Shown here piece after piece: positions 3,053-36,590 of a stretch of DNA of 49,580 nucleotides (positions within the stretch are counted from its first letter, which is position 1; every line of letters begins with the position of its first letter). The notes beneath the pieces are model-generated. The model did not search any database and was not told where the DNA came from. It was given only the letters and a program-made list of their open reading frames with translations. Both the position numbers and the translations under genes were made by a program. The DNA lies in the NCBI GenBank assembly GCA_014879465.1, contig JACSSA010000095.1:1-49580 (forward strand), given 5' to 3'. The stretch comes from Rhodothermales bacterium (lineage in GTDB: Bacteria; Bacteroidota; Rhodothermia; Rhodothermales; BA12).

Positions 3053-4453
3053 TCAGAACCGCAGGCGGCGACGCAGCGCCGGGTCGGCGTAGAGGCCGGG
3101 GTAGGCGGCGCGGAAATCGTCGCGCAACGTCGGGTCAAGGCGGAAGGCGGTGTCGAGGGCGCGGACGGTGGCGTCGGTGTCGCCTGCCGCGTAAAACGCC
3201 TTGGCTTCGCGGAAATGTACGGCCGCGTTGTCCGGCGCGGCGCGGTGAGCGGCGCGGAAGGCGTCTACGGCCTCAGGGAAGCGTCCGGCCTCGAAGAGCG
3301 TGTCGGCGTAGTCGAGCCATCCGTCGCCGTTGTCCGGCTCCATCGTCACCACCTGCCGGTAGGCGTCAAGGGCGTCGGCGAGGCGTCCGGCGTTGTAGAG
3401 GCTGTCGGCGCGGGCGTAGTGGAATTCCGCGACCTCCGGGTGCAGGCCAAGCGCTGCGTCGAACGCTCGGATGGCGTCGTCGAATCGGCCTTCGGCGTCG
3501 AGGCAACAGCCAAGGCCGTAGTGGGCTTCGGCGTAGCCGCTGTCGAGCACCAGCGCGTGGCGGAAGGCCTCCATGGCCTCGCCGAGCCGCTGCTGCTCCT
3601 CGTAAGCAAGGCCGAGGTTGTAGTACGTCGCCGCGTCCGGGCCTTCGAGTTGCAGGACGCGCTCGTAGGCTTCCACGGCCTCGTCGAGCTGCCCAAGGTT
3701 AGCCAGGACGTTGCCTCGGTTGTAGTGCGCCGACGCGAACGTGTCGTCCACGGCGAGTGCAAGGTCGTAGGCGTTGAGGGCTTCGTCAAAGCGTTCGAGC
3801 CGAGTAAAGACGATGCCCTTGTTGTACCACGCATCCGCCGAATACGGCTCGTGGTCGAGGTGACGGTCGTAGGCGACGAGGCTGTCCTCGTCGCGGCCCA
3901 TCCGGTCGAGGCAGAAGCCAATTTCGTAGTAGACCTCCGGATGGTCGGGGTCGAGGTCGGCGCAGCGCTCAAACGCTTGAAGCGCCTCGTCGAGCCGGTC
4001 GGCGCGCTCGAACGTGAGGCCAAGGTTGAATAGGGCGTCTTCGTGTGTAGGTTCGAGCGCGAGGGCGTGCTCGAAGGCCTCCAGCGCCTCGTCGGTGCGG
4101 CCGAGCAGGTCGAGCGCCACGCCCCGGTTGACAATCACCTCCACGTCGTCGGGGAGGAGGGTGAGCGCCCAGTCGTAGGCCTCCAGCGCGTCGGTGTTGC
4201 GGTCGAGAGCGCCGAGCAGAATGCCGCGCCGCATCCACGCCTCGCCGTCGTGCGGGGCGCTTTCGAGCAGGCGGTCCACCACGGTCAGCGCATCGTCGTA
4301 GCGTTCTTGCTCGTAGTAAAACGAGGCAATCTCTTCGAGGTCGTGCGAGTCGAAGTACGTCGCCTCGCCGGACTCGTAGGCTGCCACGAGGTCGCGCAGG
4401 CGCTCGGCATCGGCGTCGTCGGTATCGTCGTAGTCAAAGTCGAACAGCCCCAT
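3053..4453 (-). CDS. Tetratricopeptide repeat protein
   Basis: Tandem TPR motifs (AWYNKG, AHYNRG, TYYNLG); likely start MGLFDFDY at 4453. Confidence 0.9.
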   Translation of the reverse strand: MGLFDFDYDDTDDADAERLRDLVAAYESGEATYFDSHDLEEIASFYYEQERYDDALTVVDRLLESAPHDGEAWMRRGILLGALDRNTDALEAYDWALTLLPDDVEVIVNRGVALDLLGRTDEALEAFEHALALEPTHEDALFNLGLTFERADRLDEALQAFERCADLDPDHPEVYYEIGFCLDRMGRDEDSLVAYDRHLDHEPYSADAWYNKGIVFTRLERFDEALNAYDLALAVDDTFASAHYNRGNVLANLGQLDEAVEAYERVLQLEGPDAATYYNLGLAYEEQQRLGEAMEAFRHALVLDSGYAEAHYGLGCCLDAEGRFDDAIRAFDAALGLHPEVAEFHYARADSLYNAGRLADALDAYRQVVTMEPDNGDGWLDYADTLFEAGRFPEAVDAFRAAHRAAPDNAAVHFREAKAFYAAGDTDATVRALDTAFRLDPTLRDDFRAAYPGLYADPALRRRLRF

Positions 4454-4505
4454 CGGCGTGCAGAAACCGTAAGGTGGTGGGAGAGATCGAGGGAAACGAT
4501 GCGGC

Positions 4506-4549
4506 GGCGAAAGGTTGCGAAGCGTGGGCGAAAGGTTGGCCAAAGGTAG
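4506..4549. promoter_or_regulatory. Phased direct repeats in a divergent promoter region
   Basis: GGCGAAAGGTTG at 4506-4517 and 4527-4538, plus GGCCAAAGGTAG at 4538-4549. Confidence 0.45.
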
Positions 4550-4664
4550 GTGGCGCACGCATCCGAAACAAGACCGTTCCACAAACCGGATGCATAACCT
4601 CTCCCCGATGAATCCGTCGGGGGTCTTAAGCCGTTTATTTTGAACGGTCCCCACGCCTTCTTCG

Positions 4665-5282
4665 ATGTCTTCCTCCGCCCCGCTTCGGCTTGTTCTGGCC
4701 GACGATCACGCTCTGTTTCGAAGCGGGCTTCGTTCTCTGCTTGAGCGTACCCGAACGCTCGCCGTGGTGGCCGAGGCATCCAGCGGACGGGAAGCGCTTG
4801 AAGCGGTGGCGCAGCACGCCCCAGACGGCCTGGTGTTGGATGTGCATATGAAGGATATGCTGGGTACGGCGGTGATGCAGCAGCTGCGTGAGCAAGACGT
4901 CCGGGTGCGCGTGCTCGTGCTCTCGGCGCACGCCGACGTGCCGTACGTCGAGCAGATGGCGCGGGCAGGAGCAAACGGCTACGTCACCAAAGATCGTTCG
5001 CCGCTCGATATCGCCGAAGCCGTTCGGCGCGTGGTGCAGGGCGAGGAAGTGTGGCTCGTGCCGCAGCCGCTGGCCTCGCCGCTGCTGGCGCTCCACGAAC
5101 GCGAGCGCCGCGTGCTGGTGCTGCTCGCCCAAGGCCTCTCCAACGATGCCATCGCCGCAGAGGCGGGCATGGCGGAGAACACCGTCCGCAACTACCTCAC
5201 CGTCATCTACGAGAAGCTGGGCGTGGAGGGTGCACGCGAGGCCATCGCGTGGGCGTGGCGCAACCGGGTGATGGAGCCGTAA
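4665..5282 (+). CDS. NarL/LuxR-family response regulator (REC + HTH)
   Basis: LADDH...LVLDVHM...LSAH...YVTKD receiver domain; ERERRVLVLLAQGLSNDAIA...TVRNYLTVIYEKLGV LuxR HTH. Confidence 0.93.
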   Translation: MSSSAPLRLVLADDHALFRSGLRSLLERTRTLAVVAEASSGREALEAVAQHAPDGLVLDVHMKDMLGTAVMQQLREQDVRVRVLVLSAHADVPYVEQMARAGANGYVTKDRSPLDIAEAVRRVVQGEEVWLVPQPLASPLLALHERERRVLVLLAQGLSNDAIAAEAGMAENTVRNYLTVIYEKLGVEGAREAIAWAWRNRVMEP

Positions 5283-5302
5283 CCGTTTGCCCATTCTGCC
5301 CT

Positions 5303-6427
5303 ATGCGTACGCTTACTGCTTGGATTCGCGGATTGGCCGTCGGGCTGGCCCTGCTGGCCGCCCAACCTGCTGCTACGCAGCCCACGCTTGCGCTACCGGA
5401 TTCCGCACGCCCCGACCCCGGCCAGGTCGGTTTCCGCGACTCGCTCCGTTACCACAATCCGACGCCGGGCAAGTGGGTGTTTATCTGGGTCGAACACCTC
5501 GGCAACGGGCAAGCGCGGATCGTGCGCCGGGTGGGCGATGCGCCGCCCGACACCTTTCCTACCACGACGACTGAACTGGCCTTGCTGCCCGACATCGCGA
5601 ACACGGATTCGATTGTGGTCACGCGGTTCGCGGTGGGCGTCAAGCACGGACGAGTCTTCTTCGGGGTGGAGCAGGCGTGGCCGCAGGTTCTGGCGGGCAC
5701 GTTTCTCCTGCTGCTGGTCGTCGGGGGCGGAGTGGTGCTGCGCCGCAGCCAACGCCGCGTCAAGGTTGCCGAAGCCCAGGTGGCGCAGCAGTTTCAGACG
5801 GCACTCCACGTTGAAAAAGGCCACGAGGCCGAGCGCGGCCGGCTCGCCCGCGACCTGCACGACGGACCGCTGCAAGACCTCGCCGCCGTGCGGATGCGGC
5901 TCTACTCGGCCCAGAACCTGCCGCCCGAAGTCGTCGAAACGCTCGACGAGGCGCTGGGCCACATCGCGCAGGTGCTGCGCGGCCTCACCGACGACTTGCG
6001 CACGCCCTTGCTGCACGAGGCCGGGTTGGCGACGGCGGTGGAGACGATGGCTCAGCGTCGGCATCCCGAACTGATCCTTGATCTTGGTTTCGACGATGCC
6101 GTCACGCCGCCCGATCCGCTGGGGGCAACGTGCTTCCGCATCGTGCAAGAAGCCCTTGCCAACGCCGTCCGCCATGGCGACGCCTCAAACGCCCACGTCA
6201 CGCTCGACCGCGTGAACGGCCGCTGGGATCTGGCGGTGAACGACGATGGGGGCGGCTTCGACCTTGGCGGTGATGCGCCCGACTTTGCGGCGCTGGAGAG
6301 CGAGAGCCACTTTGGCCTCGTGGGCATGCGCGAGCGCGTGCGCTTGCTTGGCGGCACGTTGGAGGTGACAAGCACGCCGGGGCAGGGCACGACGGTGCGG
6401 GCGACGCTGCCCGCCAACACGGCATAG
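5303..6427 (+). CDS. HisKA_3 (NarX/DesK-type) sensor histidine kinase with a small extracytoplasmic domain
   Basis: Signal peptide, about 95-aa outer domain, one TM; ERGRLARDLHD H-box, QEALANAVRH N-box, DDGGGF, HFGLVGMRER, GQGT. Confidence 0.92.
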   Translation: MRTLTAWIRGLAVGLALLAAQPAATQPTLALPDSARPDPGQVGFRDSLRYHNPTPGKWVFIWVEHLGNGQARIVRRVGDAPPDTFPTTTTELALLPDIANTDSIVVTRFAVGVKHGRVFFGVEQAWPQVLAGTFLLLLVVGGGVVLRRSQRRVKVAEAQVAQQFQTALHVEKGHEAERGRLARDLHDGPLQDLAAVRMRLYSAQNLPPEVVETLDEALGHIAQVLRGLTDDLRTPLLHEAGLATAVETMAQRRHPELILDLGFDDAVTPPDPLGATCFRIVQEALANAVRHGDASNAHVTLDRVNGRWDLAVNDDGGGFDLGGDAPDFAALESESHFGLVGMRERVRLLGGTLEVTSTPGQGTTVRATLPANTA

Positions 6428-6504
6428 CGCTTTTTTTTGCGCGGCGGTTCCGTAGCTCGCCGCCGCCCGGCACGTCAGGGGTGTCCACCTAACCTCCTGC
6501 TGCC

Positions 6505-6690
6505 ATGCGCACGCTTCTGCTGCTTCCGCTCCTGTCGCTCACCACCGCTGCCGCTGCCCCGCCCCCCGCGTCGCTCCCGGCGCTGACGCCTGAGGTGCAG
6601 GCCCTCGCCACCACCTCGGAGTTGCCCGAGGGCCCGTGCTGGAAGTATGTCTGCGAAGGGAGTGTCTGCGTTTGGGTCTTTCTGTGTTGA
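6505..6690 (+). CDS. Small secreted peptide (61 aa) with a Cys-rich C-terminal core
   Basis: Signal-like MRTLLLLPLLSLTTAAAA, Pro/Ala linker, core CWKYVCEGSVCVWVFLC; host-like codons; fills the gap between kinase and tmk; followed by a hairpin. Confidence 0.65.
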   Translation: MRTLLLLPLLSLTTAAAAPPPASLPALTPEVQALATTSELPEGPCWKYVCEGSVCVWVFLC

Positions 6691-6706
6691 GTGACACGAC
6701 GACGGA

Positions 6707-6750
6707 CGCGCACGCCCGACAGCATAGGCTGCCGGGCGTGCGCGCGTTTC
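6707..6750 (+). terminator. Probable intrinsic terminator after the small peptide gene
   Basis: CGCGCACGCCCGACAGC-ATAG-GCTGCCGGGCGTGCGCG followed by a short T run. Confidence 0.55.
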
Positions 6751-6789
6751 GTACCTTCGGATCCGCTTTTCCGTCTTCGCCCCCGCCCC

Positions 6790-7425
6790 ATGTTCATCTC
6801 GTTTGAAGGCCTCGACGGCAGCGGCAAGACAACCCAGATCGAACGTCTTCACGCGCGCCTCGAAGCCGCTGGGAAGACCGTGGTGCGCGTGCGCGAACCG
6901 GGCGGCACGGCGGTCTCGGAACGCATCCGCTCGCTGCTGCTCGACCCTGATGCGCCGATTGTCCCTCGGGCCGAGCTGCTGCTCTTCTCTGCGGCCCGCG
7001 CACAGGTGTGCGACGAGATCATCCGCCCGGCTCTACGCAGCGGCGACGTGGTGATTGCCGACCGCTTCTTCGACTCCACTACGGCGTACCAAGGTGGCGG
7101 ACGCGGCCTTGCCAATCCGGATTGGCTGGGCGACTTCCATCGCTTCGTCACCGATGGCCTCGTGCCCGACCTGACCGTCTACCTCCGCCTCGACCCGGAG
7201 ACGGCGCTGGCTCGCCGCCGTGCCCGTTCGGCCACGGACGACCGGATGGAGGCTTCAGGGCAGAAGTTCTTTGACCGCGTTGCAAAGGCGTACGACACAC
7301 TGGCAGCCAGCGAACCCGAACGGTTCGTGGTGCTCAACGCCGCGCTGCCCGTCGAGGTGCTGGCCGAGGCGATTTGGAGGGACGTGCGCCGCGTGGACGG
7401 AAACCTCGGCGGGGCACGTCGGTAG
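6790..7425 (+). CDS. tmk: Thymidylate kinase
   Basis: MFISFEGLDGSGKTTQ P-loop, REPGGT, ELLLFSAARAQ, DRFFDSTTAYQG. Confidence 0.96.
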   Translation: MFISFEGLDGSGKTTQIERLHARLEAAGKTVVRVREPGGTAVSERIRSLLLDPDAPIVPRAELLLFSAARAQVCDEIIRPALRSGDVVIADRFFDSTTAYQGGGRGLANPDWLGDFHRFVTDGLVPDLTVYLRLDPETALARRRARSATDDRMEASGQKFFDRVAKAYDTLAASEPERFVVLNAALPVEVLAEAIWRDVRRVDGNLGGARR

Positions 7426-8027: not shown

Positions 8028-8438
8028 ATGCGTCGTTTCGTCCCGCTCGCTGTGCTGCTTGGCCTCGCCGCTCCGGCGTGGGCGCAGGACGGCGTGCGCC
8101 TCGGCACCTACCGGGCGCAGATGGAAGCCAGCGCGGCGCGCATCGAGTGGCAGATGGAAGCCGAGCCGGGCGTGGTCGCGTTTGACCTGCGCCGCCGCAC
8201 CGCCACCAGCAACGGCGCGTTCGTGACCGTGGCGACGCTGCGCCCGCACGGCGCGGCGCGGATGTACGAGTATGTGGACGCGTCGCTCTACAAGGGCAAC
8301 GAGATGGCCCTCGCCGAATACCAGGTCGAGGCGACATTTGCCGGAGGCGCACGGGTCGTGCTCTTCAGCGCACCCGTCAACTACACGACCACGAGCATCC
8401 GCCGCACCTGGGGCAGCATCAAGGCGATGTTCCAGTAA
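8028..8438 (+). CDS. Secreted hypothetical protein with an Ig-like module and a C-terminal TWGSIKAMFQ tail
   Basis: Signal peptide MRRFVPLAVLLGLAAPAWA; host-like codons; GTACCTT motif upstream. Confidence 0.75.
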   Translation: MRRFVPLAVLLGLAAPAWAQDGVRLGTYRAQMEASAARIEWQMEAEPGVVAFDLRRRTATSNGAFVTVATLRPHGAARMYEYVDASLYKGNEMALAEYQVEATFAGGARVVLFSAPVNYTTTSIRRTWGSIKAMFQ

Positions 8439-36457: not shown

Positions 36458-36469
36458 CGGGGGAGAGAG

Positions 36470-36590
36470 GTTACGGGTTGCTGGCTTCTGGCTACGGGCT
36501 TTTGGCTGTATGCTGGAGGTCTTGGGGGTCTGGCGTACAGCCTATGGTGTCTCTTCAGCGTCGTCGTTCGAACCTCGTCGCTCGCCGTTC
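36470..36590. repeat. Degenerate heptamer tandem repeats
   Basis: GTTACGG GTTGCTG GCTTCTG GCTACGG GCTTTTG and TCGTCGT TCGAACC TCGTCGC TCGCCGT. Confidence 0.45.

Follow-up and report, generated by a model that had tools for sequence, protein, structure and literature searches.

A 49.6-kb stretch of DNA (hereafter, the window) from the 2.97-Mb, 99%-complete genome of an uncultured Rhodothermales bacterium contains a small sensory cassette. The cassette consists of a NarL-class response regulator, a membrane histidine kinase, and a 61-residue open reading frame (ORF), encoded in this order 5′ to 3′ on one strand and flanked by a TPR gene and the thymidylate kinase gene tmk. The product of the small ORF has a signal-peptide-like start and ends in a four-Cys core that is predicted to fold as a beta-hairpin. 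The arrangement of a kinase gene followed by such a peptide gene recurs in the nearest genus, where the surroundings are wholly different. Our current hypothesis, which we hold with somewhat less than even confidence, is that the peptide would be a Sec-exported, disulfide-stapled periplasmic partner that acts on the neighboring kinase in a cell-autonomous manner. The features of the locus are as follows.

3053-4654, minus strand: TPR gene, cassette flank on the regulator side
4665..5282, plus strand: NarL-class response regulator, 205 aa, with REC and GerE/LuxR helix-turn-helix domains (Pfam)
5303..6427, plus strand: membrane histidine kinase P0001, 374 aa, with HisKA_3 and HATPase_c domains (Pfam, AlphaFold2)
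5372..5677, plus strand: periplasmic (outer) sensor domain of the kinase, residues ∼24-125, family-less (no Pfam match)
6487..6496, plus strand: ACCTAAC(CTC) motif, a candidate cis element, 9-18 nt before the peptide start codon
6505..6690, plus strand: putative small exported protein P0002, 61 aa, with a signal-peptide-like segment (1-18), a Pro/Ala-rich spacer (19-44), and a four-Cys core (45-61)
6637..6687, plus strand: four-Cys core CWKYVCEGSVCVWVFLC, a beta-hairpin by prediction (AlphaFold2)
6707..6744, plus strand: GC-rich hairpin with 17-nt arms and a 4-nt loop, then a weak T tract
6790-7425: thymidylate kinase gene (tmk), cassette flank on the peptide side

A kinase-peptide pair in two genera

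The first-pass annotation of this DNA described three co-oriented genes between the TPR gene and tmk, and the ORFs listed above, with their domains, agree with that description. The kinase gene starts 20 nt after the regulator stop codon and is followed by the small ORF after 77 nt. Three other genera of the family (g2, g4, and g5), represented by six loci, have the TPR gene and tmk directly adjacent and divergent with nothing between them, and thus the three genes form a cassette. This regulator-kinase-peptide block (∼2.1 kb) is a unit that is found at this site only in the genus of the window (g1). No repeats that would mark a mobile element were found flanking the cassette.

We examined the loci of the best kinase homologs for short ORFs whose products begin like a signal peptide and end in a Cys-rich tail. 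Genus g3, which is the nearest to g1 (tmk identity of 68% versus 54-58% for the others), was positive in both of its genomes: the gene for a 38-40% identical HisKA_3 kinase precedes, in the same orientation, a small ORF with the architecture seen in the window. In genome G005, the kinase (39-44% identical) is separated by 55 nt from an ORF ending in EACRLVCADGTCVWICD, whose product public records list as a protein (P0009). In genome G002, the kinase is 36-38% identical and the ORF, which follows after 120 nt, ends in GCALRCVGEVCVRVC. Both ORFs encode a Leu/Ala-rich N terminus after a basic residue, a Pro/Ala spacer, and a C-x3-C-x4-C-x3-C tail, and their G+C contents at third codon positions (GC3) are 0.91 and 0.84. 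The g3 peptides can otherwise barely be aligned with those of g1, and it is the architecture that is kept. The sensor domains of the g1 and g3 kinases are 24-25% identical, with the similarity clearest just before the second membrane segment. In g3, the other strand encodes the regulator (47-59% identical), which lies behind an additional HisKA_3 kinase that is soluble, and purL rather than the TPR gene sits upstream of tmk. The kinase gene followed by the peptide gene is the sole link common to g1 and g3. The earlier idea that homologs of the kinase carry a small Cys-rich ORF downstream therefore holds for both g3 genomes and fails for the homologs outside of the two genera.

Two further observations concern the g3 loci. 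The second HisKA_3 kinase (∼270 aa, no membrane segment; L074:6431-6985 in G005 and L075:6240-7049 in G002, both on the minus strand) is encoded directly upstream of the regulator and divergently from the kinase-peptide pair, and it has no counterpart beside the cassette of the window. In G002, a gene for a 763-aa DsbD-like protein (L075:8773-11064, minus strand), in which a membrane Cys motif and a C-terminal thioredoxin-like CxxC motif can be read by eye, converges on the peptide gene and ends 43 nt from its stop codon. The downstream gene in G005 is permease-like, and thus the DsbD-like linkage is not conserved.

Other homologs of the kinase, of which ∼110 were covered, appear to lack the peptide gene. 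No comparable ORF was detected within 700 nt downstream of the kinase homologs at 36 loci, 18 from related genomes and 18 from metagenomes (a 37th locus gave no kinase match and was left out); two four-Cys strings seen at these loci are in sequence that looks off-frame. Among the best 80 kinase relatives found in a species collection with an alignment of the g1 and g3 kinases, only L100 carries the ORF, and this is the same ORF as at the G002 locus. A Rubrivirga kinase, also among these 80, aligns from residue 95 and is followed by a second regulator and not by the ORF. We also applied a strict filter that requires a signal-peptide-like N terminus and C-x3-5-C-x4-C-x3-5-C within the last 26 residues of an ORF of 35-130 aa. 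Over the six frames of the whole genome of the window, the filter returned a single match, which is the ORF described here; over 173 loci (900 kb), it returned 13 matches, all of which are the same three genes in overlapping loci. Four-Cys strings downstream of other kinase homologs (L003, L008, L109, L134, L148, L153, and L165) were judged to be off-frame translations, since they occur in long Arg/Trp/Cys-rich frames with no signal peptide and mostly far from the stop codon. It should be noted that genus g5 (L071, L072, and L073) has a regulator 56% identical and a kinase 38-41% identical to those of the window, located 12-17 kb from tmk in the order kinase then regulator, with no Cys-peptide ORF.

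Profile searches gave a similarly narrow distribution. Of 285 genomes of the order, only G000, G002, and G005 were matched strongly by a profile of the g1 and g3 peptides (A4), and in a 401-genome sample of the phylum, there was no strong match beyond the genome of the window. Weak matches numbered 12 in the order, nine of them in open frames of 251-1090 aa, and four in the phylum sample; the three weak matches in the order with short open frames were rejected as unrelated, having neither a Cys tail nor a kinase nearby. Against 5.8 billion proteins, the same profile retrieved only the g1 clusters and P0009, and profile A2 retrieved only its own cluster from 1.84 billion representatives. A g1-only profile (A1) missed the g3 peptides, with its best matches in G002 (0.0139) and G005 (0.218) both lying elsewhere and its best non-self match (8.3e-5) lying inside a 2079-aa open frame. 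Because A1 was blind to the g3 peptides, more distant members could escape any of these searches.

Neither the peptide nor its DNA matched anything in Pfam, NCBIfam, Rfam, or a PDB sequence search; the only row, SitA6, is at chance level (expect value, E, of 0.054), and no family was matched at E ≤ 0.01. In the ESM Atlas, the best feature score was 0.82, and the structural template modeling (TM) scores did not exceed 0.50, a value expected by chance. When 5.8 billion proteins were searched with kinase residues 1-150, only the cluster of the kinase itself and one ortholog, P0008 (70% identical), were returned. Judged by these searches, the sensor domain is as restricted in distribution as the peptide, and within their reach, the pair occurs in only two genera of uncultured Rhodothermales, which are sisters. 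Most carriers come from wastewater or sludge metagenomes. A literature search turned up no comparable system for this phylum, which does not prove absence.

The peptide gene, its product, and the kinase

The peptide reads as the first-pass annotation had quoted it, with 61 residues, a Pro/Ala spacer between a signal-peptide-like start and the Cys core, and the pattern C-x4-C-x4-C-x5-C: MRTLLLLPLLSLTTAAAA is followed by a Pro/Ala/Thr-rich spacer and then by CWKYVCEGSVCVWVFLC at the extreme C terminus, with a Cys spacing of 4/4/5. The small ORF is a genuine gene, as judged from its base composition, the Cys residues invariant in homologs, and an in-frame indel. With a GC3 of 0.81, it is the highest of the three frames and compares with 0.79-0.82 for the neighboring genes and with 0.63 and 0.74 for the overlapping ORFs on the opposite strand. 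A search of 5.8 billion proteins yielded three clusters, with 95, 75, and 70% identity, and six sequences when cluster members are included. All four Cys residues are kept in homologs with 70-97% identity, and C45, W46, Y48, C50, E51, G52, C55, W57, L60, and C61 are invariant in the six g1 sequences. The small ORF is also predicted by the gene callers of several public sources. The same operon is present at two metagenome loci, L036 and L037, that are 98% identical to the window. A 9-bp in-frame indel at 6687/6688 distinguishes the window, whose peptide lacks a three-residue tail (GAN) that is present in L036, L037, and the relative with 75% identity; owing to this deletion, the window peptide ends exactly at the fourth Cys. 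The peptide ortholog (P0004) and the kinase ortholog (P0008) of that relative are both 75% identical to the window proteins, and thus the peptide evolves no faster than the kinase. Each of the two is recorded on two contigs, the longest of 14,615 bases, and the matching contig records hint that the two genes are on the same contigs. Taken together, the invariant Cys residues, the in-frame indel, the gene-like GC3, and an identity equal to that of the kinase argue that the peptide is under selection.

All six sequences begin in a signal-peptide-like manner, with MR, then a core rich in Leu, and then an Ala-rich stretch, with Pro closely after the Ala run. The signal peptide would presumably be cleaved. 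For the C-terminal part, AlphaFold2 (alignment A4, six sequences) predicts two strands, 46-51 and 54-59, joined by a two-residue turn, with a predicted local distance difference test (pLDDT) score of 81-87 over residues 41-61; the chain before residue 41 is disordered in the model. In the predicted register, C50 faces C55 and C45 is beside C61, and with the 3/4/3 spacing of the g3 peptides, both Cys pairs are opposite each other across the strands. Two cross-strand disulfides would probably form, an inner one between the second and third Cys and an outer one between the first and fourth.

The cores are 14-20 residues long, with net charges of 0, 0, 0, -2, -1, and +1 in the six sequences. They are very hydrophobic, and those of g1 are aromatic (4-6 of 17-20 residues). 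According to PMC13001179, beta-hairpin antimicrobial peptides are hairpins of 11-25 residues that carry a charge of +1 to +8 and whose Cys pairs are separated by 3 or more residues. By prediction, our cores have the fold of this class and do not belong to it, since the charge of five of six is outside of that range. A core that is not cationic is not a tachyplesin-type antimicrobial peptide; the likeness to tachyplesin and protegrin that had been proposed extends to the predicted hairpin and the Cys spacing, and stops at the charge.

The regulator matches Response_reg (PF00072, 4.8e-26) and GerE (PF00196, 8.8e-14), and the kinase matches HisKA_3 (PF07730, 2.5e-10) and HATPase_c (PF02518, 2.2e-15), both over the Pfam cut-offs. 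The best NCBIfam rows for the regulator are NarL, MadR, and MctR, all under the cut-offs. On both proteins, the regulator and kinase are a NarL-class two-component system. Kinase residues 1-176 had no match in a Pfam search. Hydrophobic segments at residues ∼2-19 and ∼126-148 enclose an outer domain of ∼105 aa, and thus the first-pass reading of a short outer domain with no recognized family was correct except for its size, which it had put at ∼95 aa. The AlphaFold2 model of the kinase consists of a helix (2-19), a beta-rich region (45-121) at low confidence, a long helix from residue 126, and a well-modeled catalytic core. The ortholog P0008 is 70% identical in the sensor domain. With regard to strain variation, L037 carries a 6-bp in-frame deletion at 6334-6339, in the ATPase domain of the kinase, and has positions 7107-7163 within tmk replaced by a stretch that is 30 bp longer, a local mosaic in an otherwise near-identical strain.

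Several sequence signals surround the peptide gene. In the g3 genomes, the 11-mer GGAACCTAACT occurs once per genome, each time directly upstream of the peptide gene (L074:8351-8361 and L075:8456-8466); in G005, it overlaps the kinase stop codon. In the window, ACCTAAC occurs once in 49.6 kb, at 6487-6493, 12 nt before the peptide ATG. This motif could be a regulated promoter or operator of the peptide gene itself, or a translation signal. A related heptamer, TAACCTC, is present in the window at 4595-4601, 6490-6496, and 36467-36473 (minus strand), that is, 64 nt before the regulator start and 8-9 nt before the start codons of the peptide gene and an unrelated gene. It was rejected as a shared operator, since three sites were reached in 21 of 100 shuffles and the heptamer is not enriched; we take it to resemble the 16S rRNA 3′ tail more than a Shine-Dalgarno sequence.

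Downstream of the peptide gene, the first-pass annotation had placed an intrinsic terminator. The GC-rich hairpin is real (arms 6707-6723 and 6728-6744, 94% complementary, z -4.0), and it is kept in L036 (98% identical, z -5.7), where the single mismatch is repaired by a change. Its role as a terminator is less well supported: a T run of at least 5 is absent after the stem, the tail reads GCGTTTCGT, and the terminator scan made no call. There is no counterpart of the hairpin 3′ of the g3 peptide genes. In the intergenic region between the TPR gene and the regulator, a tandem 21-nt repeat with AAAGGTTG was found at 4497-4549, in two copies and a degenerate third. It was ruled out as an element of the cassette because a single CAAAAGGTTCAC copy is conserved ∼50 nt upstream of the TPR gene in genera that lack the cassette; the repeat belongs to the TPR gene and is duplicated in the window.

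The genes around the cassette encode, by Pfam, the TPR protein, Tmk, Fur, a family-less protein, a PyrR-like protein, an RF-1 domain protein, and an FG-GAP protein. As had been noted before, there is no modifying enzyme or dedicated exporter among them. The FG-GAP repeat protein (778 aa, 647-2983) weakly matches (E 1e-4, short of the Pfam cut-off) the C-terminal sorting domain of type IX secretion, which agrees with the first-pass assignment of the host to the Gram-negative Fibrobacteres-Chlorobi-Bacteroidetes (FCB) group. The gene at 8028-8438 encodes 136 residues that start like a signal peptide and match no Pfam family; the protein is 44-50% identical in, and located beside Fur and tmk in, all family relatives examined.

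When words were sampled from the stretch, 17 sequencing runs contained half of them or more, and those with an organism label are wastewater, activated-sludge, or bioreactor metagenomes. Of four runs compared with the window, two labeled metatranscriptomic, and flagged as "probably DNA," have exact contigs over 6510-6806 and 6494-6701 as well as others dispersed over the regulator, kinase, and tmk genes, and the one run recorded as RNA has an exact-type contig on the regulator only (5067-5287); such contigs cannot show transcription.

Possible roles of the peptide

In the mechanism that we favor, the cassette would be a clade-restricted sensory module in which the small ORF specifies a pre-peptide for export by Sec. 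Once the signal peptide has been removed, the C-terminal 14-20 residues would fold in the periplasm to a disulfide-stapled beta-hairpin. The peptide would stay in the periplasm and act on the ∼105-aa periplasmic domain of the upstream-encoded HisKA_3 kinase as a co-sensor, ligand, or feedback modulator. It could, for example, report the periplasmic redox or folding state or tune kinase versus phosphatase activity, and the kinase would then signal through the NarL-type regulator. We infer export and cleavage, the disulfides, the periplasmic retention, and, above all, the interaction with the kinase. The proposal is based on a kinase-peptide link that is constant despite rearrangement between g1 and g3, on the codistribution of the peptide and the sensor domain, on the specificity of the ORF for these kinases among homologs, on the cassette arrangement, on the signs of selection on the peptide, on the matching contig records of P0004 and P0008, on the predicted hairpin, and on precedents in which a small accessory protein of the envelope acts on a kinase.

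Several points weigh against it. Adjacency is equally expected if the peptide is controlled by, or merely cotranscribed with, the two-component system. Since g3 is the nearest genus to g1, the pair is probably of single evolutionary origin, and the adjacency counts as one conserved trait rather than two. In G005, the kinase frame shifts inside the sensor domain (L074:7249-7560) and the regulator matches in two frames (L074:5795-6383); the assembly is 70% complete, and either indel errors in it or a decaying system could be the cause. With a pLDDT of 25-48 over residues 20-125, the sensor domain as modeled by AlphaFold2 supports no binding-site proposal. Finally, the peptide may keep its N-terminal segment as a membrane anchor.

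The main rival explanation, which we consider somewhat unlikely, is that the peptide is regulated cargo. In this case, its gene would ride at the end of the kinase transcript or be driven by the regulator, and the peptide would be the output of the system, a stapled hydrophobic hairpin that acts on membranes or competitors in a bacteriocin-like manner or has a role in the envelope. In producers of bacteriocins and lantibiotics, the peptide genes are commonly located beside their two-component regulators, which counts for this explanation. The very hydrophobic core of the g1 peptides, with its four to six aromatic residues, and the conserved motif directly upstream of the peptide gene, as a possible regulated promoter or operator of its own, are also consistent with cargo. 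In addition, a hairpin with two Cys pairs is the build of beta-hairpin antimicrobial peptides as described in PMC13001179, and the g3 peptides have the 3/4/3 spacing. However, the core is noncationic in five of six sequences, whereas PMC13001179 gives +1 to +8 for every class member. Further points against cargo come from the rest of the locus: no immunity gene, exporter, or outer-membrane route adjoins the g1 cassette, whose neighbors are TPR, tmk, Fur, and PyrR; the downstream genes differ between the two g3 genomes; and it is the kinase, not the regulator, that stays linked to the peptide.

A second alternative, to which we assign a low probability, is that the two genes have no functional link and that the peptide is a periplasmic protein of some other kind, such as a metal binder or a structural component, which has been beside the kinase since the common ancestor of the genera. 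The probable single origin of the pair would fit this scenario, the four Cys residues could bind metal rather than form disulfides, and the DsbD-like gene adjoins the peptide gene in G002 and not in G005. Yet the surroundings differ wholly between g1 and g3 and the regulator has moved, while the pair has remained adjacent and co-oriented with gaps of 55-120 nt. Moreover, the g1 cassette sits as a unit between two genes, TPR and tmk, that are adjacent elsewhere.

More doubtful still is the possibility that the peptide is a released pheromone, which would leave the cell, accumulate with density, and be sensed by the kinase of neighboring cells, a form of ribosomal-peptide quorum sensing in a diderm. 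It would amount to cell-cell signaling in the FCB group, in which a released stapled hairpin is sensed by an orphan periplasmic domain and the two codiversify with pherotype-like specificity; we regard this, too, as improbable. The same kinase-peptide linkage that speaks for a periplasmic partner is compatible with a pheromone, and between g1 and g3 divergence is faster in the sensor domain (24-25%) and in the core of the peptide than in the catalytic half of the kinase (38-44%). Receptor-pheromone pairs of Gram-positive bacteria diversify likewise. However, fast divergence is also expected from relaxed or lineage-specific constraint, and with carriers in two genera only, there are too few for covariation statistics. 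A peptide of 14-45 residues is also too large to pass general porins, and no outer-membrane export route or processing protease is present in or beside the cassette. We prefer the periplasmic partner over the pheromone because an outer-membrane export route is absent in and near the cassette of this diderm.

That the small ORF is untranslated, a chance ORF or RNA element in GC-rich DNA, is very improbable: there is no Shine-Dalgarno-like sequence before the ATG, but the GC3 is gene-like, Cys, Trp, and Gly residues do not vary even in homologs with 70% identity, the indel of 9 bp preserves the frame, the architecture is kept in g3, the ORF is the sole one of its kind in the genome, and Rfam gave no RNA family over 4300-7000.

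Comparison with known systems

The analogy to ComQXPA of Bacillus that the first-pass annotation had drawn does not hold. The two have in common a HisKA_3 kinase (ComP), a NarL-type regulator (ComA), and a small peptide gene in the locus. ComX is isoprenylated by ComQ, is encoded upstream of comP, and has neither a Sec signal nor a Cys framework, and ComP senses it via a multi-pass membrane domain. The cassette described here differs in gene order, with the peptide gene downstream of the kinase gene, in modifying enzyme, with nothing ComQ-like among the neighbors in the window, and in sensor topology, with a ∼105-aa periplasmic domain between two membrane segments. The three-component bacteriocin systems of Gram-positive bacteria rely on an AgrC/HPK10-type kinase, a LytTR regulator, a double-glycine leader, and an ATP-binding cassette (ABC) exporter. 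In contrast, the present cassette has HisKA_3 and GerE domains and a signal-peptide-like N terminus, with no ABC exporter nearby.

The layout of the precursor is similar to that of the Escherichia coli heat-stable enterotoxins, which consist of a signal peptide, a spacer or pro-region, and a short, C-terminal, disulfide-rich core that is oxidized in the periplasm. The number and spacing of the Cys residues are different, no export route is seen here, and the peptide has no sequence similarity to any Pfam, NCBIfam, or PDB family. To the best of our knowledge, heat-stable enterotoxin-type peptides have no link to kinases. As for the hairpin itself, tachyplesin and gomesin have the 3/4/3 Cys spacing of the g3 peptides. 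Tachyplesin, gomesin, and protegrin belong to the class that is described in PMC13001179 as single hairpins with two Cys pairs, as is predicted for our peptides. Unlike our peptides, the class members listed in PMC13001179 are all cationic (+1 to +8). They are animal peptides, and their genes do not adjoin those of kinases.

The closest parallels are small envelope proteins that act on sensor kinases. MgrB of Enterobacteria, a 47-aa protein, inhibits its sensor kinase from the periplasmic side, and its periplasmic Cys residues are functionally important. It is membrane-anchored and encoded away from phoPQ, and PhoQ/PhoP is of the HisKA/OmpR class. MgrB and the peptide described here would both be very small envelope proteins paired with a histidine kinase, with the action on the kinase being conjectural in our case. 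They differ in that our peptide has a signal-peptide-like N terminus and a four-Cys predicted hairpin and is encoded directly after a HisKA_3 kinase, and no membership in the MgrB family is apparent from sequence (no Pfam or NCBIfam family at E ≤ 0.01). In PMC8404706, MgrB is described as acting on the sensing side of PhoQ within a feedback loop. Similarly, QseG is an exported accessory protein that acts on the kinase QseE (PMC12691602). QseG is an outer-membrane lipoprotein and not a Cys hairpin of 40 residues; it is not homologous to our peptide, and its kinase is of another class. The QseG gene is located inside the two-component operon QseE-QseG-QseF.

Based on its sequence, the peptide appears to be a new family and a variant, in one small clade, on the theme of a small exported partner of a sensor kinase. 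The absence of relatives of the peptide and the sensor domain from Pfam, NCBIfam, PDB, and 1.84 billion cluster representatives makes the two a compact, self-contained pair. A ∼105-aa domain and a 14-20-residue hairpin could be made synthetically, with the g1 and g3 versions serving as mutual natural specificity controls. Small envelope proteins that tune kinases are known from a few enterobacteria, and peptide-sensing kinases are known from Gram-positive bacteria; if our proposal is correct, both themes would be extended to a new phylum and to a new peptide chemistry.

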